Part shown: positions 9,663 to 56,022 of the stretch, one piece after another
How the letters are laid out: each line of letters opens with the position of its first letter
Position numbering within the stretch: position 1 is the stretch's first letter
Source of the DNA: an uncultured Verrucomicrobiae bacterium
Lineage (GTDB): Bacteria; Verrucomicrobiota; Verrucomicrobiia; Chthoniobacterales; JAFAMB01
DNA length: 64,000 nt
Reading direction: 5' to 3'
Assembly: GCA_963748055.1 (NCBI GenBank)
Contig: CAVVII010000010.1
Span: 18,820 to 82,819, forward strand
The notes under the pieces: model-generated
The model's database searches: none
What the model saw: the letters and a program-made list of their open reading frames with translations, nothing else
What the model was told of the DNA's origin: nothing
Made by a program: the position numbers and the translations under genes

Positions 9663-9744
9663 CGAGTAAGTAATGCGTCCCGCTTTACCTCTTCGTCCGA
9701 TTTCTATGTAACGGAGGAGTAAGGCGAGGCGCTTTACTTACTCG
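9663..9744. repeat. REP-like inverted doublet (family A)
   Basis: GTAAGTAATGCGTCCCGCTTTACCTCTTCG...CGGAGGAGTAAGGCGAGGCGCTTTACTTAC; related copies at 53303..53391 and 60974..61074. Confidence 0.75.
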
Positions 9745-45404: not shown

Positions 45405-46361
45405 TTACCTTTTAAACAGGCCCGACCACCATGAGCGAGGATGCTTGACAGAGTCGACGGTTTCATGCCTGAAGGTTTGCAGGTATTCTTTGGCCTCAGC
45501 TTCTAACTTGCGTAACTGCGCTTTCTCGATCCCGATCCAGGTGGCCGGCAGCGCAACTTCGTTAGCCCTTAGACAAAAGAAATCACTGGCTATCGGCTCG
45601 CCGACTATCAGGTCGATCCAACGCTTTCCGTTCGCCGCGATGATTACGTAAGGAAGACTAGAGTCAGAGTGCCTTGCCAGAAAGCCAGACCAGAAGCTAA
45701 GATTTTCCTTCACTTGCGAGGAAATCGTCATCAGCCGAAAATGTGCCCGTCCGCTTCTGCCAGTTTCCGTCGAGGCGCGTGTCCGCTGGCTTTTCAGACC
45801 TGCGGAGAGAGTGATTAAGTCCGGTAGAATTGAGTTCTCTCCCGGATCGCTGATCTCCGAAAAAGGGTTGCCGGTAGAGGAAGGGAAGAACGCGCCGTTC
45901 AATTCACGGTAGGTTTGATTGAATGAATCACGGATTCTCTCCTGGGTCTTTCCTTCTCGGCACTGGATGCCGAGCTGCTCGATTGGCGCCAGTAAAAGAC
46001 CGATTGCTCTGAGACCGTCAAAGCCTGCCTGAGCGCAAATGACCAATGGGAACCGAGTGCGTCCTTTGCGATCCGCCGAAGCCCAGATTGCTCCGATGAT
46101 AGCTTGCTTATCGCGAACCCAGACAAATCGATGGTTGAACTCGATTGCTTGACCGGACTTTTCTATTTGATCCCAGGCACCCGAAGCAAGCTGAGTGGCG
46201 ATTCCCTCCGAATAGAGGAGCTGTTTCGTCAGAACCAGGGTTTCTGTTGCCAACCCGACGTCGTCGATATGATCATCCCACGCGGGATGTTTGCCGAACC
46301 CCGCCACATGGATCCTGCCGCTCAACGGATCCCGCAAGAAAACTTTGAGAAATCGGCTCAT
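45405..46361 (-). CDS. tagF: TagF-like T6SS accessory protein
   Basis: [12 protein letters not shown] and [12 protein letters not shown] resemble TagF motifs; overlaps the tssM stop. Confidence 0.65.
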
Positions 46362-49300
46362 GGCCCGCCAAATTCCCGAAGGCCCAAACTGTCGATGGTG
46401 GGCCAGGCGTCCAAGGCCGGAAGTGGCGTCTCAAAGGCAGCCTGGACCCACACCGCTGTAGGCTCGCCCGGCCTGAGCGAGACTCGCCAAACCTGCCCGA
46501 CGTCGACCGGTTTACCTCCAAAGCGACCCAGCATGCGCAGCGCAGACCAGTTTTCGCCGCAGTCGACGGCTTGAGACGCACCACCCGTCGGGGTGTGGAA
46601 AACGATAAAATGAAAGGCGCTGTCGATAGGGGATTTTCCGAGGAGCATGTCCGCAGGCGCATCCACTGGCACAACGCCGCTTCCGCCTTTGTAAACTTTC
46701 GATTTTCCACCGGCCACCAGCATAACCCCGTTCCAGTTCCGAGGGTTGTAAGGAAGTATCGGTTCCGGGGTCGGTGGCGGCGCGTCTCCGGTGAACAGCT
46801 GACTGATGATCGATCGGCGGGGCGGGGGAGGAAGTGGGGTCGGGGTGGCCATCGGGGCGAGATCGGGGCCCGACAACTGGCGCTGCGCCTGCCCGTTGAG
46901 CAGGGTAATCGTGACCGCGGAGACCGAGCCGTCCGGCTTAAGGATCGTGTCGCACAATGCGGCTAGCGGGATAAGCCCCTTCGCCATGTCCGTCAATGCC
47001 TGCCGTGCTTGCACCGGCATCTTTGCAAACGTGTCCGATTGCAAGTCCCGGCGAATCGCATTCAACAAGACCTTCACCTGCCGAATCTGATCTACACCGA
47101 TCGTCTGGTTATCGGGTCCCGGGGGCCAAAGGAGCGGGAAGCGAACGCGAGCGCGCAGTTGAGCCTTCACCTGCTTGAAATAGTTCGTCAGGAAAGCTTC
47201 GCGTTGGATCTCCTCCGTGCGACGAAGCAGGTACTTGCAAGTTGTTAGAAAAGGTTCTTTGAGTTTACCCTGATAGTCCTCGATCTTCGCGTTCAATAGC
47301 CCCAGAGCATTTGTCAGCAGCTCAAATGGCTTCCAGGTCTGACCAATTAAATTCATCTTCTCCGAGTAATTAAATTGCGGAGCCCCGGCGCGGCACTGTT
47401 GATAGAAATTCCAACGAGCAAGATAGCTGGCTTTTTGATCTGCTACGGGCACTAAGACGGCGTCATCGAGGGCTTTGAACTCTTCCAACTGCGGCGCGCC
47501 GATCGCACCCTCAATTTGAGTCTTCATTTGTTGTGAAATATCCGCCAGCTTCACTTTGATCTCCCGAAGAAGGGCGTATTTGGGATCATCTTGCGGAATT
47601 GTCTCCAGGACTTTCGCCACTCCTTTTGCGTTGGGATCCGGGGTTGGGATGACCTTTTCTATTTCGGCCTGAATCGCCGCGATTTGTCCGAAGCGAGATT
47701 CATTTCCGCCGGTCAACTTCTGGTAGGCTGAAAAGAGGGTCTCCGGGCCATCTTCGAATACTCCGGCTCGCCGTAGAGCCGCGAGCTTTTCCTCCAGCGC
47801 AATTTTGGCCGCGTTCAGCTTGTCGAACATAATGGCGACCTCCCGGTCACTTGTGAGGGGATCATCCTTTATACTGGCTTTGGCGGAGAGTTCGGTCTCG
47901 ATCACCTGGTATTGCCGGGCGAGGCCCGCCAGTTCGACCAGCAGTTGAAGATTGGCCGCCCGGCTCTTGATGCGTTCCCTTGCAGCGGCGATCAGGTGGT
48001 CCAAGCCGACCCTGATCGGGGTATTCTCGGCCAGACTCGATCCGCCACCCGCCCAACTCGGTGGCCATTTCCCACGGCCATCGCGATTCTCGGTGTAGGT
48101 CCAATTCATGATCTCCATCAGACGTGGTTCATTGGGCCTGTCGGCGACGTACTCCAACAAAGGAGCGAGGAAACTGGCCCCTGGCGTACCCTCGCCCGGT
48201 TGGCCCAAGTACCGTCGAATTGCTATTTCCACGCGAACCAGGGCAGCCAGCGCTTTCGCCTCCAGCGCGCCCACGAGCTCCGCGGAGCGGGGATCCGGCT
48301 TCCGATTGGCCGGCAGTACCGGATTGGGCTCGCTCATCTTCTGGCGCGTTGCGTCGAGAAGCGGCTTGACTACGCTGTCTTCGAAAAGGATTCGTTGGGC
48401 GTGCTGCCGTTCCTGGTCCGGATTGGTGCCAGTCTGAGCGAACAATCCAAAGACCCAGGGAATGTTCAGCGGTCTGGCGGTGAGTTCTCGCAGCGCCCCG
48501 TGGAAATCGCCGATCGAAAGCTTCTCGTAGCGAAAATCGGCGCGCGTCTCCGCTGTGAGACCGGGACCGACCGGCTCATCTCCGCGATAGCGAAAAAGAG
48601 TTGTACCGGCCGGATCAGGAGCGACGATCGGCTGCCAAGTCTTTCCTCTCCAGCCTTCCCTGGCGCGCGCCCAGAATCCACTTTGTTCGACGACACTTTC
48701 CTGGAGCGAGCGGTAACCCAAAAGGCCGAACGTCAGCAAAGCCAGCAATCCAAGCACGCCTGCACCAAAAAGCGCCAACTTGCGGTAGAGCAGAAGCCGA
48801 TCCGTGTTCGTCGCCCGCGTCACCAAGCCGTCTTCCCGGAACACCTTGTCGAGGAACAGATCCCGTAAGAAATAAGAGTGATCTCGTTCCCACGCGCGGC
48901 CGGCCGGCAACTGGTCGACTGGCAAATCCATGACCGCCGCGAGTTCCTCGTCGAGCGCCGAACCCTCGCGCATGGACGAAGTAAAGTAGATGCCGCGCAG
49001 AAACAACGGTCGCGAAGTCCATTCTCCAGCAACGAAAATTGTTTCCAAATATCGGCGCAGCCGCGGCGTGAGCGCGGTCAAACTTTGCGGAAAATCGTAA
49101 AGACGATCGACCTCGTCGGCGCGTCGGCCGTCAGACTGGTTCGCAACCGGGTCGAGCAACAGCGCGAGTCTCCTTCGGCGCAGACGCTGGGCAACGGATC
49201 GTAGATGTTCCTCCAGAAGTTCAGGGCGAAACGGGGCGTCCAGCGGCGCCGGATTGGACCATCCAAGCATTTGCTGCTGAGCGCGTGGATCGTCCAAACC

Positions 49301-50107
49301 TTCGAAGAACTCACGGAAGCCGTTGATGAGGTCACATTTGGTTAGCAAGACAAAAACCGGAAAACGCACATCCAGCTCGCGTTGGATGGCTTCGAGCTGA
49401 CGCGCGATTTTAGCGGCCTTGCGCTCCATTTCTTCAGGAGCGTCTTCGACCAGACTTTCGACTGGGATCGTCAGCAGGAGGCCATTTACGGGACAGTTAA
49501 AACGATGCTTTTTGAGAAGCCCAAGGAACTCTCGCCATTCACTCGTCGTTCCCGGTTCCACTTCTTCAAAAATCAATCGCCCGGCGGTATCCAGGATGAC
49601 CGCATAATTCGTGAACCACCAGTTCATGTTGATGGTTCCGCCGACTCCTTGAAATTCATCCTGCAGACCAGGAGGAAAGCCGGCCTGCGAATGGCGGATT
49701 GCCTCGGTCTTTCCCGACCCGGGCTCTCCGACGATCACGTACCAGGGTAATCCGTAGAAATCCTTGCCTGCGGACTCGAATTTCTCGATTCCCTTGGCGA
49801 AATTACGGCGCAGATCCTCCAGCCTCCCGCGCGCTGCGGTGTCGGTAATCCCGCGATTGGCGGCGCTGGTTGCTATTTCACCCCGGAGTTCCGCTGCCTT
49901 GCGCCTGCGTACCCAGAAAACGAGTAGAAGGTATAAGCCCAGGATGAGCGCAACGAACAGAATCCCCAGCGCGACGATGATGGCTACTTGAACTCCGAAA
50001 AAGGCTGCTGCGCCGACAATGGTTGTGGCCAGCAAAATAAGAATAATTGCCTTTACCCAAGTGGAGAGGCTCGCAAATGCCTTGAAAAGATAGGCTAGTT
50101 CTTTCAC
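46358..50107 (-). CDS. tssM: T6SS membrane complex TssM/IcmF with divergent C-terminus
   Basis: Two N-terminal TMs, [47 protein letters not shown], third TM. Confidence 0.92.
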
Positions 50108-50129: not shown

Positions 50130-50828
50130 TCACTTTGAGATCTCCTGCGAGCCGATCGCGGACAGAGAGTCAGTCAACGAGATCGACGCCGCATGGAACA
50201 GATAGGCCTCGACCGTCACAACGACCAGGCAAAGCCCGATGAATACGATCGCGATCCCGCCGAGTCTTGAAGCAGGCGCCTGCACCAGATCTCGAGTATC
50301 AACGTTCAGGTACGCTTCGGGACAAATCCTCGCCGTTTTGTCCATCTCCATGGCGGTCCGTATTCGTTGGCTAATGTCCAACATCTTTCCGCGCAGATAC
50401 TCGGGTTGGCCGGCGTACCAGCCCATAAATCCAAGCCCGATGCACGTATAGTAGACTGGAAGGCGCAGGCTCGCTTCATCGCTCGGGTCGTTCAGCGTTT
50501 CGTCCAGCTGGTCAAAAAACTTTTCGTCGCCGGCTAACTCTTTCTGATCATAGGCCAGCCGGTTCTTATTCCAGGTTGCCGCGACGGCCAGGTCGCTCTC
50601 TGAAATCATTGAATCCACGAAAAAAATCAGCGGGAGTTCCAGCTTCTGCCACTGCACTCTCAACGCAGGATCGCTATCGGCTGTCTTGCGCAACTCCGCA
50701 AAAATCCCCTCGATCTGCAACCGCAACTGATCGTAACTGTAAGCGGCGGCACCTCCGCCTTTGCGTCCCAGGCGGTTGAGCAGGCACACCTTGGTGAATA
50801 GCGGCTCACAGAGTTCAAGAGGCGTCAT
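50130..50828 (-). CDS. tssL: T6SS TssL/DotU (no OmpA domain)
   Basis: [29 protein letters not shown]-terminal TM. Confidence 0.88.
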
Positions 50829-50831
50829 AGA

Positions 50832-52193
50832 CTATGTTTCCGATTTTGGGAGCGGCATGTAGAGCGTCAAATCGTAATCCGCCGACTCATTTCCGGTCCA
50901 ACGGACGACGGCAGATTTCTCGCTCTGTATCTGTTGCCAGCTGCGGGCGCTCTCACCACGAAGCAGGCGAAAATAATAAAGGTTTGACTGTGCGGGGAGT
51001 TCGAGCGGCGGAAACCGTTCCTCCTTCAGGATGACGCCGCGGATGGCGCGGCCGGACATGCTCTCCGGCATAAGCTTGAATCGGTCGGCATCTTCAACGA
51101 GCTGCGCGAGTGAGCGTGGGTCTTCTTTGGTTCTGATCCCCAAAAAGTAGTCGCTCGGTCGAAGAAAATGCTCGTCTGTAAGGGTGGCTTTAAACAGTCC
51201 GTTTGCCTTAATGAATTGAACCTTGAGAAAGCTCGGAGCGACGCTTCCTCTCAGCAATTCGCGGATCTTCGCGGCCAGCTCGCTGAAACAGGGATATGGA
51301 TTGTCGTGTTGATAGGGGGCGCAATCGTAGAGATCCCTGTCCGGATGAAGCGCAGCGAGCTCCCCTAGAATTTCCCGCAGCTCCAGGTAAATGTCGAACG
51401 GAGCCAGGTTGGGAGTCTCAACGAGGGCCTCCAGTCGAGCACCAAAGCGATTCAGGGTCCGCAGGCGCATCACTTGCTCGAATTGAATGCCCCGCATGGT
51501 GTCGATGCTGAACCCTCCGCGCGTGATTTGCAGGACGAGTTCCTGACGACTTCCCAAGACCTGGCTGCTTAAGTCGCGAACCAGTTCGCGGAGCGTCGCG
51601 GACCCGTTCAGGACGAAGCACGGTCCAACAAACTCAGGATCGCGCTTTGGCAGGCCAACCTCCTCGCCTGCGGCTCTGGTTACCCTTAACAAAGGTATTA
51701 CTTCCAGGTCCGACCGGTCCTCAATATCCAAAAGCAACCTTGCATTGACTCTCCTCTGGAGCACGGTTTTGACGTTCTCGCCCGTGTTCTCATCAGGCAC
51801 TTCCGCCTCGGCAATACGATAAAGAATCTTAGCTCGGGGGTCGACCGTCTGGCCCGGGTTGACGCAATTGGCGCGGGCGCTGAACCAGAGAGGCACCCCG
51901 AGATAGACGACGAACCGGCCGCGCGATTCAAATGCCTGTTTGATATCCATCGCGGGCAATTCTGCATCCTGGGGGTAAAGCACTTCTTGTCCGCTCGGCA
52001 TAATGGCATGGAGCCGGTCAAACCGGAGACGCATATTCTCAAGATCATCATTGGAGAGTCGTGCATCGACTACGCCGTATGGATAAGCCCAGTTGAAGCG
52101 GCGCTCGGCGGACGCGCTTTCGTTAAGGCTTCGCTGGATACGCTGCAAATGATGCGGCAGCAAAAACAATCCTTCATGCCAATGTACTTGCAT
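50832..52193 (-). CDS. tssK: T6SS TssK
   Basis: VHWHEGLFLLPHHLQ, YQHDN, FPPLELP. Confidence 0.93.
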   Translation of the reverse strand: MQVHWHEGLFLLPHHLQRIQRSLNESASAERRFNWAYPYGVVDARLSNDDLENMRLRFDRLHAIMPSGQEVLYPQDAELPAMDIKQAFESRGRFVVYLGVPLWFSARANCVNPGQTVDPRAKILYRIAEAEVPDENTGENVKTVLQRRVNARLLLDIEDRSDLEVIPLLRVTRAAGEEVGLPKRDPEFVGPCFVLNGSATLRELVRDLSSQVLGSRQELVLQITRGGFSIDTMRGIQFEQVMRLRTLNRFGARLEALVETPNLAPFDIYLELREILGELAALHPDRDLYDCAPYQHDNPYPCFSELAAKIRELLRGSVAPSFLKVQFIKANGLFKATLTDEHFLRPSDYFLGIRTKEDPRSLAQLVEDADRFKLMPESMSGRAIRGVILKEERFPPLELPAQSNLYYFRLLRGESARSWQQIQSEKSAVVRWTGNESADYDLTLYMPLPKSET

Positions 52194-52229: not shown

Positions 52230-53186
52230 CTAACGCCCCCGGATTTCCGACCTCGATATCAACTCCTCGGTATAGGCCACAATTCCATCGACGATCTGCG
52301 TTTCTACAGCTTGACCGCTCAGTTCGGCAGCTAATTCGACATAACGGCGCCAGCATTTTTGCTCAACGTTGGCAATGAATCCAGGAGACTTCGATTCCAC
52401 GGCGGCCCGAATCTTCTCCGGCGCGAATCTCTCAAGGTGTTTGCGTGCGAAAATTTCTCCCGCCGGGCCAATGGCGGAGAGCAGTCCGGCGGTAATTTGC
52501 CGCGTTTTGTCGAGCATCTGTGTAATCTGGAGGGTGGCTACCTCGCGGTCACCGGCAAGATAGCGGCCGACGATCCGGCGTGGGTTATCGCTGGCCTGAT
52601 CCCGGCGCACGCTCGATTTCGGGGCGATATTCTTCCAGACATTCCAAATCAGGTGGTCAAGTGTAATGATTAGTTCGAGCAACGCCGTGAAGAGTCTCGT
52701 CAGTCGCTCCTCGTCCAGAGGGTCATTGGGTGTCATCCCGAGTTTACCCAAAAGCTCCAACGGCAATTCGATGCCCTGGCTCGGCGCGACAAAGAGGCCG
52801 ACGGCTTGAAGTTTTTGCGCAAGCACGGCCTTCGCCTCGCGGGAAAGTTCAGGCAAGCGGGCCAACAATTCGTCTGCTACATCCTGGGCGCTTCGCTCCA
52901 CTTCTTTAACGGGCGGTGGTTTAAGATTCGGCGCGTCAATCCGTTCCGGGCCCGGGAAGCGTTCCATGAGCGCGGCGAGATACTCCGAGCGTCGGTTCTC
53001 CACGACATCTTTGATCGAGCGCTCGATTTCTTCCACGAGGTATTCGTGGCGCGCGTTGAGGGGATCGTCTGCGAAGCTGGTCTGAAGCATCCACAGGCGC
53101 GCAGCTACGTTCTGAGCCCAGGACCGGGCCTCTGGCACAGGTTGCATAGCGGCCAAAGGCTCAGGTCTTTCGGAAGTGCCAGGCAT
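52230..53186 (-). CDS. Hypothetical protein with a TagH/ImpI C-terminal-like segment but no evident FHA domain
   Basis: GLLSAI...LERFAPEKI...KCWRRY resembles the TagH C-terminal domain; first gene of the tssK operon. Confidence 0.55.
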   Translation of the reverse strand: MPGTSERPEPLAAMQPVPEARSWAQNVAARLWMLQTSFADDPLNARHEYLVEEIERSIKDVVENRRSEYLAALMERFPGPERIDAPNLKPPPVKEVERSAQDVADELLARLPELSREAKAVLAQKLQAVGLFVAPSQGIELPLELLGKLGMTPNDPLDEERLTRLFTALLELIITLDHLIWNVWKNIAPKSSVRRDQASDNPRRIVGRYLAGDREVATLQITQMLDKTRQITAGLLSAIGPAGEIFARKHLERFAPEKIRAAVESKSPGFIANVEQKCWRRYVELAAELSGQAVETQIVDGIVAYTEELISRSEIRGR

Positions 53187-53302
53187 GCTGCTTTATGAAC
53201 ACGAACTGAAATAGTACGTTGCGGGCGGTTCACAACGCAATCTAAAACAACAGGGGCGGCTGGAGAACGTGTCGGCGTAAAGCTGCTTTTCGCAAACTGA
53301 CG

Positions 53303-53391
53303 GTAGGAGAAGCGGGCTTACTCATTCCTTATTGGATCAAGGTTTACGGTTTTAGTACTTACCGAAGAGGTAAAGCGGGACGCATTACCTA
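53303..53391. repeat. Family A REP doublet interrupted by the intron
   Basis: GTAGGAGAAGCGGGCTTACTC...CGAAGAGGTAAAGCGGGACGCATTACCTA, completed by C at 54031 after the intron. Confidence 0.7.
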
Positions 53392-54030
53392 GTGTGCCCG
53401 ACATGGGTCCAATGTAGTGAAATGAAAGGAAATGATCGGAAGCAGTGAAAGCAACCGTAGCGAAAAGCAAGGCCCAGGGCCGCGAGGCCCTGAGATGAAA
53501 GAAGCAATAGGCAAACGAACGATCGTAGGAACACGAACGGGCAGAGAGGCCGCTTGCGGGCGAAGAGTATGCTAGGAACATGCGAAATCCAACCGCCACC
53601 GAAAGACGCAAGAGGTAGAGCCAGACGACACGGGTCGGAAAGAGTGGACACCTTACTCGGGGAGATCTGTGGGGTGAGAGCCCTGGAGAAGTCAGCAGAG
53701 GCCGTAGTAGTGAAGAGACGCGGTGAAAGGGGGAAGGAGCGAAGGGCCAAAGAACCAAGAGAGCAGAGAAAGGCGAAACTGGCGAATAGAGAAGCCGAAC
53801 AGGGACATGCGACACGGGAGGACGCAATAACTGCGAATCTCTATCGACCCGACGGAGAAGGGCTCGGTGGTGGAATTACTACAACCTGACCGAAAGGCAA
53901 TGGCCAAGGACTAAGCGCCTGGATCCGACTGAAGAAAGCGAGCTACAAGGTTCAACCGCCGGATGCGGAAAACCGCATGTCCGGTGGTGTGGGAGGGTCA
54001 CGGCGCGCAATCACTGTAACCCGACCCGAT
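53392..54030 (+). mobile_element. ORF-less group IIC intron (639 nt)
   Basis: 5' GTGTGCCCGACATGGGT; AAGTCAGCAGAGGCCGTAGTA; class C domain V CCGCCGGATGCGGAAAACCGCATGTCCGGTGG; domain VI ending ACCCGAT; no RT ORF. Confidence 0.88.
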
Positions 54031-54046
54031 CTAAAGCGGACGCTTC

Positions 54047-54364
54047 CTATCCATCCACCCAGACAGGAAACGTGTCACCGGCTTCAAATTGCAACCTCCG
54101 GGCGTACGTCAGCTCAAGCTTGCCGTCTTCGTATGCGCCCTTGACAGGCACGTTGTCCCGGAATCGGAGCTTGAGAAACGGCCCTCGAAATCGCGCTTCC
54201 TCGATATAGACGATCAATTGGTATCGTCCTTCCTTTTGCTCGTTTGAAACGACGGTTGCCGGGATCTGCCTCACAATTACCAGATCGGCTATAAAAAGCA
54301 GATTCGCAACTGCCGAGATGACGTGGTGGAGGTTCTTGACAAACGGAAATTCGCCCCCTAACAA
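54047..54364 (-). CDS. Small hypothetical protein (true start probably near 54273)
   Basis: ORF with plausible composition, RQIPATVVSN..FPVWVDG. Confidence 0.5.
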   Translation of the reverse strand: MLGGEFPFVKNLHHVISAVANLLFIADLVIVRQIPATVVSNEQKEGRYQLIVYIEEARFRGPFLKLRFRDNVPVKGAYEDGKLELTYARRLQFEAGDTFPVWVDG

Positions 54365-54399
54365 CGCTTTGAATTACTCCGATCCCCCCAGCCGATCGA

Positions 54400-56022
54400 A
54401 TGGAGACAAAAACGATGCAATCAGAATGGTGGCGTGGCGCAATTATCTATCAGATTTATCCACGAAGCTTCTTTGACACTAACCACGATGGAACCGGCGA
54501 CTTGCCTGGTATCAACCAGAAGCTCGACTACATCTCCAGTTTAGGAGTCGACGCGATCTGGATTTCACCATTTTTTAAGTCGCCGATGCGTGATTTCGGC
54601 TATGACGTGGCCGACTATCGCGCCGTGGATTCCATCTTTGGGACGAACTCAGATTTCGCTTCTCTGCTTTCTTCTGCGCATGAGCGTGGACTGAAGGTCA
54701 TCGTCGACATGGTTTTGGCTCACACCTCGGATCAGCACCTCTGGTTTAAGGAGAGTTGCGTGAACCGCACGAATCAAAAAGCGGACTGGTACGTCTGGAC
54801 CGACCCGAAACCCGATGGCACGCCTCCAAACAACTGGTCGTCGGTCTTTGGCGGCCCGGCCTGGCAATGGGAGTCGCGCCGCAGGCAGTTTTATCTTCAC
54901 CATTATCTACGGAGCCAGCCCAATTTGAACTGGCAAAACCCGGAAGTCCGCGCGGCCATGTTTGAAGAGGTTCGCTTCTGGCTGGACGCAGGTGTCGACG
55001 GATTGCGTCTCGATGCCATTACTACGCTCGCGCATGATCCAAAATTGAGAGATAACCCTGCGCGCAATCCGGTAGAGAGCGATTCAGGAAACAACCCGTT
55101 TAACTGGCAGGAACTTACCTACAGCCGCGACCAACCTCGCACTTTGGAGTCGCTCGAAGAACTCCGGACGCTGGTGAATCAATATCCCGATCGATACCTG
55201 ATCGGGGAGGTTGCCGACGTCGACATGATCAGCGTCAGTGCCAAATACACGCGTACCGGTAAGCATCTCCATAGTTGCTACAATTTTGAGCTCATGCAAT
55301 TGCCGTTCAATTCCTCTTCCCTGCGGGATGTCATAGAAAGGACCGAAGCGGTTCTCGGCACAGGGTGGGCGACCTGGGCGATGAGTAACCATGATAACAT
55401 TCGGGTTGTGACCCGCAGCGCGCGCTCTGCGGACCTCCAGGGAGACGAACCCGCCCTGGCCAAGTTGCTGCTCGCCGCACTGTTGTCGTTCAGGGGAGGG
55501 GCTTGCGTCTACCAGGGCGAAGAACTTGGCTTGACCGAGGCTGAGATCGATTTTGCCGATCTGCGCGATCCGTGGGGCATTGAATTCTGGCCCGATTTCA
55601 AGGGACGCGATGGATGCCGAACACCGATGCCATGGTCTTCCGAGTTGCCGAACGGAGGCTTCACTACTTCGAAGCCGTGGTTGCCCATTCCTAGAGAACA
55701 TTTAGCCCAGGCGGTCAATGAGCAGGAAAAAGATCCGCGGTCAGTCCTGCACACTTTCCGGAGGCTTTTGGCTTGGCGAAAGCAACATCCGGCTCTTGTG
55801 CGAGGCGAAATAGCCTTTGTCGAGTCCAGCGAGCAAGTGCTGGCATTTGAACGGTCGTCGAACGGTGACCGGGTCCTTTGCGTGTTCAATTTTTCAAATC
55901 GGGAAGCCGCGCAACCGATTTCAAGTCTTTGGCGTTCGGCCGAAGGCCACGGCTTTGATGCGATTTCCGGACAGGATCAAATCCTCCTGCCAGCCTTTGG
56001 CGTCTGGTTTGGAATCACGTAA
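54400..56022 (+). CDS. GH13 alpha-glucosidase
   Basis: WWRGAIIYQIYPRSF, DFGYDVADY, GVDGLRLDA, NHD, YQGEELG, GRDGCRTPMPW. Confidence 0.95.
   Translation: METKTMQSEWWRGAIIYQIYPRSFFDTNHDGTGDLPGINQKLDYISSLGVDAIWISPFFKSPMRDFGYDVADYRAVDSIFGTNSDFASLLSSAHERGLKVIVDMVLAHTSDQHLWFKESCVNRTNQKADWYVWTDPKPDGTPPNNWSSVFGGPAWQWESRRRQFYLHHYLRSQPNLNWQNPEVRAAMFEEVRFWLDAGVDGLRLDAITTLAHDPKLRDNPARNPVESDSGNNPFNWQELTYSRDQPRTLESLEELRTLVNQYPDRYLIGEVADVDMISVSAKYTRTGKHLHSCYNFELMQLPFNSSSLRDVIERTEAVLGTGWATWAMSNHDNIRVVTRSARSADLQGDEPALAKLLLAALLSFRGGACVYQGEELGLTEAEIDFADLRDPWGIEFWPDFKGRDGCRTPMPWSSELPNGGFTTSKPWLPIPREHLAQAVNEQEKDPRSVLHTFRRLLAWRKQHPALVRGEIAFVESSEQVLAFERSSNGDRVLCVFNFSNREAAQPISSLWRSAEGHGFDAISGQDQILLPAFGVWFGIT

Follow-up and report, generated by a model that had tools for sequence, protein, structure and literature searches.

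A 639-nt group II intron without an ORF occupies positions 53392-54030 (+) of the window, the whole 64,000-nucleotide stretch of DNA analysed here, and starts immediately after a short REP-like hairpin. This element is very probably a non-autonomous class C retroelement of soil Verrucomicrobiae (Chthoniobacterales-like), for which REP-like hairpins are the main landing sites. The term REP is used here for repeats that are REP-like by form and copy number. The features of the locus are collected in Table 1.

Table 1. Coordinates of the intron, its target site and neighbouring features in the window
Feature	Position	Strand	Basis or remark
ORF-less group IIC intron	53392..54030	+	Rfam matches; exact skip in two DNA runs; 8 further matches in own genome
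Domain I core (RF02001)	53476..53651	+	68.4 bits; EBS1/IBS1 covariation across copies
EBS1 loop CTAGGAA	53572-53578	+	TAGG at 53573-53576
Domain IV remnant without ORF	53768..53950	+	maturase-region relic (WWNY...) at 53866-53927
Domains V and VI	53954..54030	+	RF00029, 44.6 bits; alignment with relatives
First base of 3' exon, C, presumed IBS3	54031..54031	+	C in 21/21 copies with a 3' junction
REP-like target hairpin, end of 5' exon	53363..53391	+	0 mismatches to GTAARGCGRGACGCNTTACYTA; kept in intron-free contigs
Uninterrupted REP-like copy for comparison	9665..9695	-	sequence match to restored site
318-aa ORF, no Pfam family	52230-53186	-	precedes tssK, tssL, tssM
tssK	50832-52193	-	neighbouring gene
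tssL/DotU	50130-50828	-	neighbouring gene
tssM/IcmF	46358-50107	-	neighbouring gene

The intron and its target hairpin

Scanned against Rfam at gathering thresholds, the whole 64-kb window yielded only two matches, both within the intron: RF02001 (group-II-D1D4-3; E 1.6e-11, gathering threshold 32) and RF00029 (DV/DVI; gathering threshold 40). The intron begins with GTGTG at 53392 and ends with ...CCCGAT at 54030, as read from the sequence, and these termini satisfy the group II consensus (5' GUGYG and 3' AY). DV was likewise read from the letters at approximately 53956-53987, with a CGC triad, and a bulged A in DVI at 54024 is the putative branch point. Inside the intron, no sense-strand ORF exceeds 111 aa, the ORFs being judged by length alone. 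Domain IV keeps one relic of an IEP (intron nt 475-536), which shares 81% identity over 62-67 nt with nt 1509-1575 of a full-length relative, in the maturase region of its ORF; no other significant remnant was found in comparison with that relative. An earlier note had proposed an ORF-less group IIC intron in a REP hairpin, with short possible IEP remnants in domain IV, and had named an Rfam scan as a check: the matches, the boundaries and the hairpin two nucleotides before the site bear out the identification, and the remnants come down to this single relic.

The target hairpin has the form GGTAAAGCG-GGA-CGCATTACC-TA, in which 53369-53377 pair with 53381-53389 around the loop GGA (53378-53380), and folds as DNA with -7.0 kcal/mol (z -3.15 versus shuffles). 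IBS1, CCTA, lies at 53388-53391, and the intron starts 2 nt past the 9-bp stem, between CTA and C, in agreement with the earlier placement within CTAC: the stem ends at 53389. Removing the intron in silico joins 53362-53391 to 54031-54032 and gives CCGAAGAGGTAAAGCGGGACGCATTACCTACT, which is one base (C for T) apart from the reverse complement of 9665-9695; joining by script thus reproduced the single mismatch that had been claimed. The copy at 9665-9695 has a convergent partner on the + strand at ~9712-9742. No terminator-like site or T-run was found at 53363-53391, where the tail reads CCTACTAAAG.

Repeats of this form are abundant in the genus. The pattern GTAARGCGRGACGCNTTACYTA matches 49 times in the window's own genome (G000), where the target hairpin is the match at C10:72189-72210, and 30, 138 and 141 times in three of the other genomes searched (G005, G006 and G013) and once in a fifth genome of the genus, while reversed-pattern controls gave 0 matches. 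By nhmmer, 53 REP-like matches were found in G000 at E<=1e-3, 16 of them with an inverted neighbour within 200 nt; all repeat counts rest on nhmmer and IUPAC patterns. A strict hairpin regular expression (28 matches vs 5 in the reversed control) was too narrow and was dropped. The tails of exact-pattern REPs vary between genomes, with 24 CTTA vs 5 CCTA in G000, 105 CTTA vs 11 CCTA in G006, and 58 CCTA vs 12 CTTA in G013. The head reads GTAGG in the window copy and in most G013 copies, and GTAAG in most copies of G000 and G006. The earlier label of a GTAG-type REP therefore fits the window's own copy but not the host's REPs at large, which are mostly CTTAC (GTAAG).

An intron-free allele of the locus exists, because in each of two metagenome studies a contig passes directly from 53391 to 54031 ('skips 639, GT..AT'). 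The contig in run X1 (study P1) has a shorter side of 60 nt, and the one in run X5 (study P2) is 305 nt long, with 134 + 171 nt around the joint; the flanks differ from the window by 0-1 letters. Both runs were classed as DNA by an automatic guess. The best run matched 0.34 of the stretch's sampled words, and the listed sample labels were soil and freshwater. Four RNA runs each matched <=0.06 of the sampled words; in one of them (X17), the contigs cover related introns only, without the 53391/54031 joint.

The intron lies 206 nt from the start of the 318-aa ORF at 53186, the first of the minus-strand genes that include tssKLM, which matches the distance of about 200 bp upstream of the operon given before. 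It is antisense to both adjoining genes; thus, the T6SS transcript does not carry it as an intron, and it need not splice for the host.

Relatives, target choice and spread

The window's own genome holds nine matches to the intron, and matches occur in 13 of the 61 genomes searched (own included) and in 8 of 18 within the genus. The relatives include three full-length introns of 1888-1889 nt in G006, a congeneric Verrucomicrobiae MAG. They carry a 413-aa ORF, intact in two copies and frameshifted in one, whose protein has RVT_1 and GIIM only, without an endonuclease domain, scores 392 bits on TIGR04416, and has the GsI-IIC RT as its best solved match (E 3e-117). The window intron is 90% identical to this full-length form over nt 1-376 and 97.5% over the last 80 nt; the RT of this relative supports placing the window element in class C (IIC). 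Shorter members differ in what they have lost: the derivatives in G005 and G013 (705-722 nt) keep nt 1-577, those in G000 (626-639 nt) have a different domain IV, and one in G017, another of the genomes searched, measures 294 nt. The differing internal deletions show that ORF-less derivatives have originated more than once.

The earlier note had advised aligning the 5' exons of other copies and of a full-length relative and checking the EBS1/IBS1 pairing. Of the 24 family members whose 5' junction is present, 19 follow the hairpin form seen at the window site, all three full-length introns included. These 5' exons have an 8-9-bp stem and a GGA or AGA loop (once GGGA), 1-3 nt before the insertion site. 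The final bases are xCTA or CTTA in each of the 24 5' exons, and C opens the 3' exon wherever its junction is present. At the window site, EBS1 and IBS1 form a 4-nt pairing (CCUA/UAGG), and the two elements covary across the family: EBS1 reads UAGG with a CCTA exon tail, and the three G006 copies with a CTTA tail have UAAG. The alignment thus favours the proposal that this intron lineage uses REPs as landing sites.

Movement of the ORF-less copies is indicated by their similarity. Nine copies in G013 are 99.7-100% identical, three in G000 are 99.5-99.8% identical, and two in G005 are 100% identical. For most pairs, the flanks are ~50% alike beyond the short repeat; in a few G013 pairs, they are 63-80% alike over 250 nt. 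Near-identical copies at unrelated loci show that these elements have moved while carrying no ORF themselves, for which RT would have to be supplied in trans. In the G000 assembly, the search for a cognate RT returned fragments and a 38-aa N-terminus that an IS240/IS6-type element cuts, but nothing intact, and the G013 assembly yielded no RT at all; the two are incomplete MAGs (75% and 83%). Supply in trans is thus putative in G013.

These observations are consistent with a mechanism in which the family recognises a short DNA stem-loop with a 4-nt tail. The tail would pair with EBS1 of domain I (CCUA with UAGG) and be followed by C, the intron would reverse-splice 2-3 nt past the stem, and an RT supplied in trans would copy the inserted intron into DNA. 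Since stem-loops with the right tail are mostly REP-like repeats in this genus, REPs would be the main landing sites. The sister genome contains full-length members with an RT gene, and the ORF-less derivatives have themselves multiplied.

Competing explanations and the state of the window copy

The target pattern could also reflect ordinary IIC behaviour, in which any stable hairpin with an IBS1 suffices and REPs are taken merely as the most numerous sites. Of the six G000 copies that have a 5' junction, only two lie in REP-like hairpins; the C21 copy and the three recent ones of 626 nt come after different hairpins ending in CCTA, which indicates that the requirement is a hairpin plus a 4-nt tail. 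Related RT-encoding introns of other Verrucomicrobiota, Proteobacteria and Firmicutes are found after terminators or unrelated GC hairpins, at a distance of 3-5 nt, so hairpin homing is generic to the class and the use of REPs may be opportunistic. Occupancy is also low, with 3 of 58 exact CCTA sites filled in G013. Set against this, the 19 copies behind the common hairpin form (9/9 in G013) fall in two repeat families that cover an estimated ~0.1% of the genome, and EBS1 fits the dominant REP tail in both G006 and G013. On balance, an absence of REP specialisation seems rather unlikely. It differs from our main reading in degree, with the same mechanism, and the evidence supports REPs as the commonest carriers of the hairpin and its 4-nt tail. 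A bolder version of REP specialisation can be put forward only speculatively and is, in our judgement, doubtful: a IIC lineage would have adopted the REP-like family as a homing niche and retuned EBS1 to the host's dominant tail (UAAG where 105/116 exact-pattern REPs end in CTTA, UAGG where 58/70 end in CCTA), and SINE-like ORF-less derivatives would have burst into many identical copies in RT-free genomes. If so, such bursts would imply an RT that entered from outside the chromosome, with a plasmid, phage or different cell as its source, or that was lost right after the burst.

Other alternatives concern the window copy itself, which could be an inert fossil or a dead-on-arrival recombinant, with only its relatives active; we consider this slightly favoured. 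The copy is the sole member of its subtype, shares 85% identity with the remaining full copies of G000, and scores 16-18 bits lower on RF02001 than its relatives (68 vs 84-87 bits). In an RNAalifold-predicted structure that is dominated by one lineage, with a DI-DIII alignment that excludes G057, 14 of the 18 pairs changed relative to the nearest relative are broken, against 1/8, 2/13 and 11/41 in three other lineages and 2/5 (G006) and 8/13 (G013) in two further ones. The ribozyme ends and DV/DVI had been described as intact, which is true of both splice-site ends and DV, as it is of the EBS1 loop; the DVI stem, however, contains one C.A mismatch as well as a G.U pair at positions that pair fully in the relatives. 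With so many half-compensated helices, the copy may be, and on the predicted fold probably is, splicing-impaired. Simple decay in place was rejected as the cause of the broken helices, because almost no differences are private to this copy (~2): of the 31 differences that separate it from its nearest relative, 24-25 match the state of the other G000 lineage, and outgroup comparison marks 14 of 25 as shared-derived. We infer from this distribution that the window copy is a mosaic of the two intron lineages of G000. The intron-free allele, with its near-identical flanks, implies recent gain or loss and is ill suited to a long decay in place. Its contigs could in turn record the precise loss of an intron that had filled the site ancestrally, for instance through recombination with the cDNA of spliced RNA. 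The old or mosaic look of the copy would suit such a loss, and the joined contigs are silent on the direction of change; yet the intron is antisense to its neighbours, no spliceable sense transcript is evident, and such elements are lost precisely less often than they are gained, all of which makes this explanation improbable. A host function of the insertion, such as altered tssKLM expression, is highly improbable: its position close to the operon and the natural filled/empty polymorphism speak for it, but a promoter scan found no promoter-like site in 53100-54450, the other copies lie at unrelated loci, and nothing ties the element to the T6SS.

Relation to known introns and repeats

IIC introns home to terminator and attC hairpins, and REP-like landing sites extend this habit. 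Dispersed REP-like repeats would be a third class of structured landing site for IIC introns. The family resembles the IIC introns GsI-IIC of Geobacillus stearothermophilus, B.h.I1, O.i.I1 and E.r. IIC in its small ribozyme, its 4-bp EBS1/IBS1 pairing, its insertion a few nucleotides past a DNA stem-loop and, in the full-length relative, its En-less RT/maturase. It differs from them in using REP-like dispersed repeats without a T-run instead of intrinsic terminators, and most of its copies lack an ORF. Hairpin targeting by IIC introns is described in two papers (PMC4424553, PMC12584367). Group IIC-attC introns such as S.ma.I2 offer a close parallel, as a IIC sub-lineage specialised on a repeated, structured, non-terminator hairpin (PMC4424553). 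Their target is the integron attC site, whereas the target here is a chromosomal REP-like repeat; both kinds of site lack a terminator stem plus T-run.

The Trichodesmium dnaN and Thermosynechococcus introns are likewise deletion derivatives that rely on the RT/maturase of a full-length relative; to our knowledge, these ORF-less introns are not IIC. They reside in housekeeping genes, whereas the multi-copy IIC derivatives described here are intergenic, and, unlike in those cases, no cognate IEP was found in two assemblies (G000 and G013). Group II introns that lack an ORF are characterised in PMC4424553 as rare among bacteria and, in nearly every case, found alongside a related IEP, and the Trichodesmium case appears in PMC12584367. 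A literature search, with most subscription journals outside its scope, found no REP-specialised IIC lineage and no non-autonomous ORF-less IIC family.

An association between a group II intron and REPs is on record for Pseudomonas putida KT2440, where a table in PMC1525189 gives 2 of 9 copies; at 22%, it is weak beside the 19 of 24 seen here, and the passage concerned reports no covariation of EBS1 with the tail of the kind observed in this family. ISPpu9, ISPpu10, ISPsy8 and IS1397 also take REPs as insertion targets, but they use transposases. The repeats themselves are similar to REP/REPIN/RAYT systems in being short GC-rich palindromes with a GTAG/GTAA head, present in tens to ~140 copies and often in inverted pairs. 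They differ in copy number, which is below that in Pseudomonas, and in the RAYT, for which no gene was confirmed: among five Y1_Tnp matches, the highest score on a RAYT model is 46.5 bits, where the cut-off is 80, another match is IS200-type, and no REP was seen flanking any of them.

The family connects REPs with retroelements, both of them selfish or semi-selfish DNA, in a phylum that has been little studied. It offers a natural series that starts with a full-length intron and leads to several ORF-less forms of independent origin, an EBS1/IBS1 switch of one base between species and a wild filled/empty polymorphism, which together make trans-mobilisation of ORF-less bacterial introns directly testable. 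Since every insertion separates the head of a REP from the hairpin, individual REPs may also be disabled by the introns.

The window intron and its target hairpin

Only two Rfam matches pass the gathering thresholds in the whole 64 kb, and both lie inside the intron stretch, covering domains DI-DIV and DV/DVI (see table). The 639-nt element contains no long sense-strand ORF (maximum 111 aa), and its junctions read CGAAGAGGTAAAGCGGGACGCATTACCTA at the end of the 5' exon, GTGTGCCCGAC ... ACCCGACCCGAT in the intron and CTAAAGCGG in the 3' exon, with boundaries at 53391/53392 and 54030/54031. Rejoining the flanks yields a 32-mer that, apart from a single base, equals the reverse complement of the uninterrupted REP at 9665–9695, which, together with a convergent partner ~20 nt away, forms a REPIN-like doublet (9665–9742). 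Folded as DNA, the end of the 5' exon gives a 9-bp stem with one A.A mismatch and a GGA loop (−7.0 kcal/mol, z −3.15), and the intron begins 2 nt past this stem, between the CTA and the C of a CTAC tetramer. The earlier note's observation of an ORF-less group II intron in a REP hairpin, its point of insertion and the REP restored upon excision are thus confirmed, and its interpretation is supported with the refinements described below. The note had also seen only short remnants of the intron-encoded protein (IEP) in domain IV; this narrows to a single piece, 53866–53927 (intron nt 475–536), 81% identical to maturase-region nt 1509–1575 of a full-length relative, and no other significant piece was found.

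Coordinates of the window intron, its neighbours and its relatives
Feature	Position	Strand	Remarks
Window intron	53392–54030	+	neighbours all on −
Rfam group-II-D1D4-3	53476–53651		68.4 bits, E 1.6e-11
Rfam Intron_gpII, domains V/VI	53954–54030		44.6 bits
105-aa ORF	54047–54364	−	no Pfam family; ends 17 nt from intron 3' end
318-aa ORF	52230–53186	−	no Pfam family; starts 206 nt from intron 5' end; directly upstream of tssK
tssK, tssL (DotU), tssM (IcmF)	after 318-aa ORF	−	
C21 copy, 5' part	G000:C21:16442–17861 (L005:1501–2920)		nt 1–376 93% identical to window copy
G006, three full-length copies			1888–1889 nt; 413-aa ORF intact in two, frameshifted in one
G005, three ORF-less copies			711–722 nt
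G013, nine ORF-less copies	e.g. L019:1501–2205, L044–L049		704–705 nt
G017 mini-intron	L021:1501–1794 (G017:C32)		294 nt; ~220 nt of domain I and last 71 nt kept

The distance to the 318-aa ORF that precedes tssK agrees with the placement given earlier, about 200 bp upstream of the tssKLM operon start. With the neighbouring genes all on the opposite strand, the element is antisense to local transcription, which rules it out as an intron of the type VI secretion message. No promoter-like site was found in 53100–54450.

Contigs from four public runs were aligned to window 53150–54300. In one contig each from runs X1 (study P1) and X5 (study P2), position 53391 is joined straight to 54031 ('skips 639, GT..AT'); the X5 contig (305 nt) matches the window with no difference over its left 134 nt and one over its right 171 nt. 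Provided that X1 and X5 are DNA, as which they were classed by an automated guess, an intron-free allele of the same locus exists in nature. The hairpin would then be part of the target rather than of the element, and the near-identical flanks would make the insertion, or its loss, recent relative to flank divergence. The same runs contain contigs of full-length relatives, whose loose ends at 53762 and 53866 continue into IEP coding sequence. Another X5 contig (window 53375–54032, 'goes back 658') runs from the intron 3' end plus C through a REP tail into the intron 5' end, and would fit tandem introns with a single short REP unit between them, at another locus or in another organism. A 672-nt X1 contig (depth 30) follows 53150–53267 without difference and diverges beyond 53267, which suggests that a related strain carries a structural variant of this intergenic region, upstream of the REP.

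Landing sites and exon recognition across the genus

Relatives of the window intron were matched in 13 of 61 genomes searched, its own genome (G000) included, and in 8 of 18 within the genus. In 19 of the 24 copies with a readable 5' junction, the intron begins 1–3 nt past an 8–9-bp stem whose loop is GGA or AGA, or in one case GGGA. These comprise two copies in G000, three in G005, all three full-length copies in G006, nine in G013 and one in G017, all of the same genus, and one in G057, which belongs to another family; the other five, on G000 contigs C3, C26 (C26a), C24 and C21 and in G043, follow other hairpins. The exon tail is xCTA or CTTA in 24/24 5' exons, and C is the first base of all 21 readable 3' exons. 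The hairpin of the window copy has no T-run after it and escapes a terminator scan; with the 19 junctions behind hairpins of this form, this favours REP-like hairpins over ordinary terminators as landing sites.

Multi-copy status was counted and shown for two hairpin patterns only; the hairpins of G005, G017 and G057 resemble them in form. The pattern GTAARGCGRGACGCNTTACYTA, with up to two mismatches, occurs 49 times in G000, 30 in G005, 138 in G006, 141 in G013 and once in G017, and its reversed form gave no match in any of the five. A second hairpin type occurs 21 times in G013 and hosts six of the nine intron copies there. By nhmmer, G000 holds 53 repeats at E ≤ 1e-3, 16 with an inverted and four with a direct neighbour within 200 nt. 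Since no RAYT was confirmed (best candidate 46.5 bits, cut-off 80), we call the repeats REP-like.

The domain I hairpin loop at 53572–53578 reads CUAGGAA. The EBS1 loop is UAGG in every copy with a CCTA exon end and UAAG in the three G006 copies with a CTTA end; EBS1 and IBS1 covary cleanly, in the 4-bp manner characteristic of IIC introns. Among exact-pattern repeats, CCTA/CTTA tails number 11/105 in G006, where the intron has UAAG, and 58/12 in G013, where it has UAGG, so that the intron tracks the host repeats, whereas no tracking is seen in G000 (5/24) or G005 (0/16), both with UAGG introns. As two genomes fit and two do not, adaptation of EBS1 to the dominant host tail is no more than a hint. 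The mostly CTTA tails of G000, set against its UAGG introns, may explain why recent copies there lie behind non-REP hairpins.

IIC introns are defined by hairpin homing that uses a short EBS1; their known targets are intrinsic terminators, joined by attC sites in the case of one sub-lineage (PMC4424553, PMC12584367). The window intron shares this habit but uses a hairpin lacking a T-run. Several IS elements are known to target REPs, and in one published table the group II intron of P. putida KT2440 is REP-associated in two of nine copies (PMC1525189). A literature search, with key older papers outside its reach, found descriptions of neither a REP-centred IIC lineage nor multi-copy ORF-less IIC families. 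While the underlying mechanism is ordinary, the new features are a REP-like landing niche shared across the genus, the switch of EBS1 and tail by one base, the repeated origin and bursts of ORF-less copies and, if the runs are DNA, the filled/empty polymorphism in the wild.

ORF loss, spread and the supply of reverse transcriptase

A full-length, RT-encoding relative was found in G006. Its 413-aa protein carries RVT_1 and GIIM domains only, scores 392 bits against TIGR04416 and has the GsI-IIC RT as its best solved relative (E 3e-117, residues 4–394). The G005 and G013 forms consist of full-length nt 1–577 plus the last 119–141 nt, a single internal deletion, whereas domain IV is of another kind in the G000 forms, where the window copy shares it with the 626-nt copies at ~82–85% identity; the ORF was therefore lost at least twice. 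The G017 mini-intron follows the hairpin GGTCACGC-GGGA-GCGTGAGCC plus TA.

G000 is a 4.38-Mb MAG (32 contigs, 75% complete) with nine matches, the window copy included, four of them fragments. Three copies of 626–627 nt (C3, C26 and C24) are 85% identical to the window copy and 99.5–99.8% to one another, at unrelated loci. The C21 copy, the only cognate RT-type copy in G000, continues into the first 38 residues of the RT ORF, where a transposase gene of IS240/IS6 type (249 aa, PF13610) interrupts it; no 3' end was found on its contig. Contigs C2, C3, C18–C20, C22, C25, C27, C28 and C31 have 57–59% G+C against 54–55% elsewhere in the bin (estimated contamination 4.8%); as one 626-nt copy lies on C3, part of this intron set may stem from a second organism or replicon.

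The earlier note proposed a non-autonomous lineage moved in trans. In its favour, the nine G013 copies (40 contigs, 83% complete) are 99.7–100% identical, yet their flanks beyond the short repeat are ~50% alike for most pairs (63–80% over 250 nt for a few). Near-identical copies with unlike flanks also occur among the three 626-nt copies of G000 and two of the three in G005; these elements have therefore transposed as ORF-less units. Against it, no intact cognate RT was found in G000, where there are fragments only, or in G013, where there are none and Pfam RVT_1 has zero matches, although absence does not follow at 75% and 83% completeness. A review describes ORF-less introns as a rarity among bacteria, with a related IEP almost always present alongside them (PMC4424553). 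The RVT_1 search of G000 returned only one truncated RT, of another lineage (G000:C11:504514–505047, L010; 235-aa RT/GIIM frame near the contig end), with its own domain V match (L010:1824–1918, 41.7 bits) and not matched by the window intron's DNA. A different group II intron IEP, 34% identical to the cognate one, is present about ten times in G005, together with fragments of the cognate one; one copy of this different IEP (G005:C22:153132–155589, L017) is found ~700 nt from an ORF-less family copy and on the other strand.

Condition of the window copy

The claim of intact ribozyme ends and DV/DVI held for both splice-site ends and DV, which are in order, as is the EBS1 loop, but not for DVI, where one C.A mismatch and one G.U pair stand at places perfectly paired in relatives. 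In DI-DIII, judged on an RNAalifold consensus predicted with the window copy left out, 31 positions separate the window copy from C21, its closest relative; they change 18 pairs, 14 of which are broken. Changed pairs are kept in 7/8, 11/13 and 30/41 cases in three other lineages, and in 3/5 in G006 and 5/13 in G013. The Rfam DI score is 16–18 bits below that of C21 and the 626-nt copies.

Private decay would account for broken helices, but it is ruled out by the nature of the differences from C21: ~2 are unique, and 24–25 match the state of the 626-nt lineage. Eight outgroup introns agree with C21 at 14 of 25 sites, so that the states common to the window copy and the 626-nt lineage there are derived. 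Clustering of the differences is moderate (27 runs, where 37 ± 3.7 would be expected; P ~0.005). The window copy thus resembles a recombinant between two intron lineages, its helices half-compensated on the predicted structure, and we lean slightly towards its being impaired in splicing. Such a state fits poorly with a very recent insertion, unless the chimera formed in the course of inserting or shortly beforehand.
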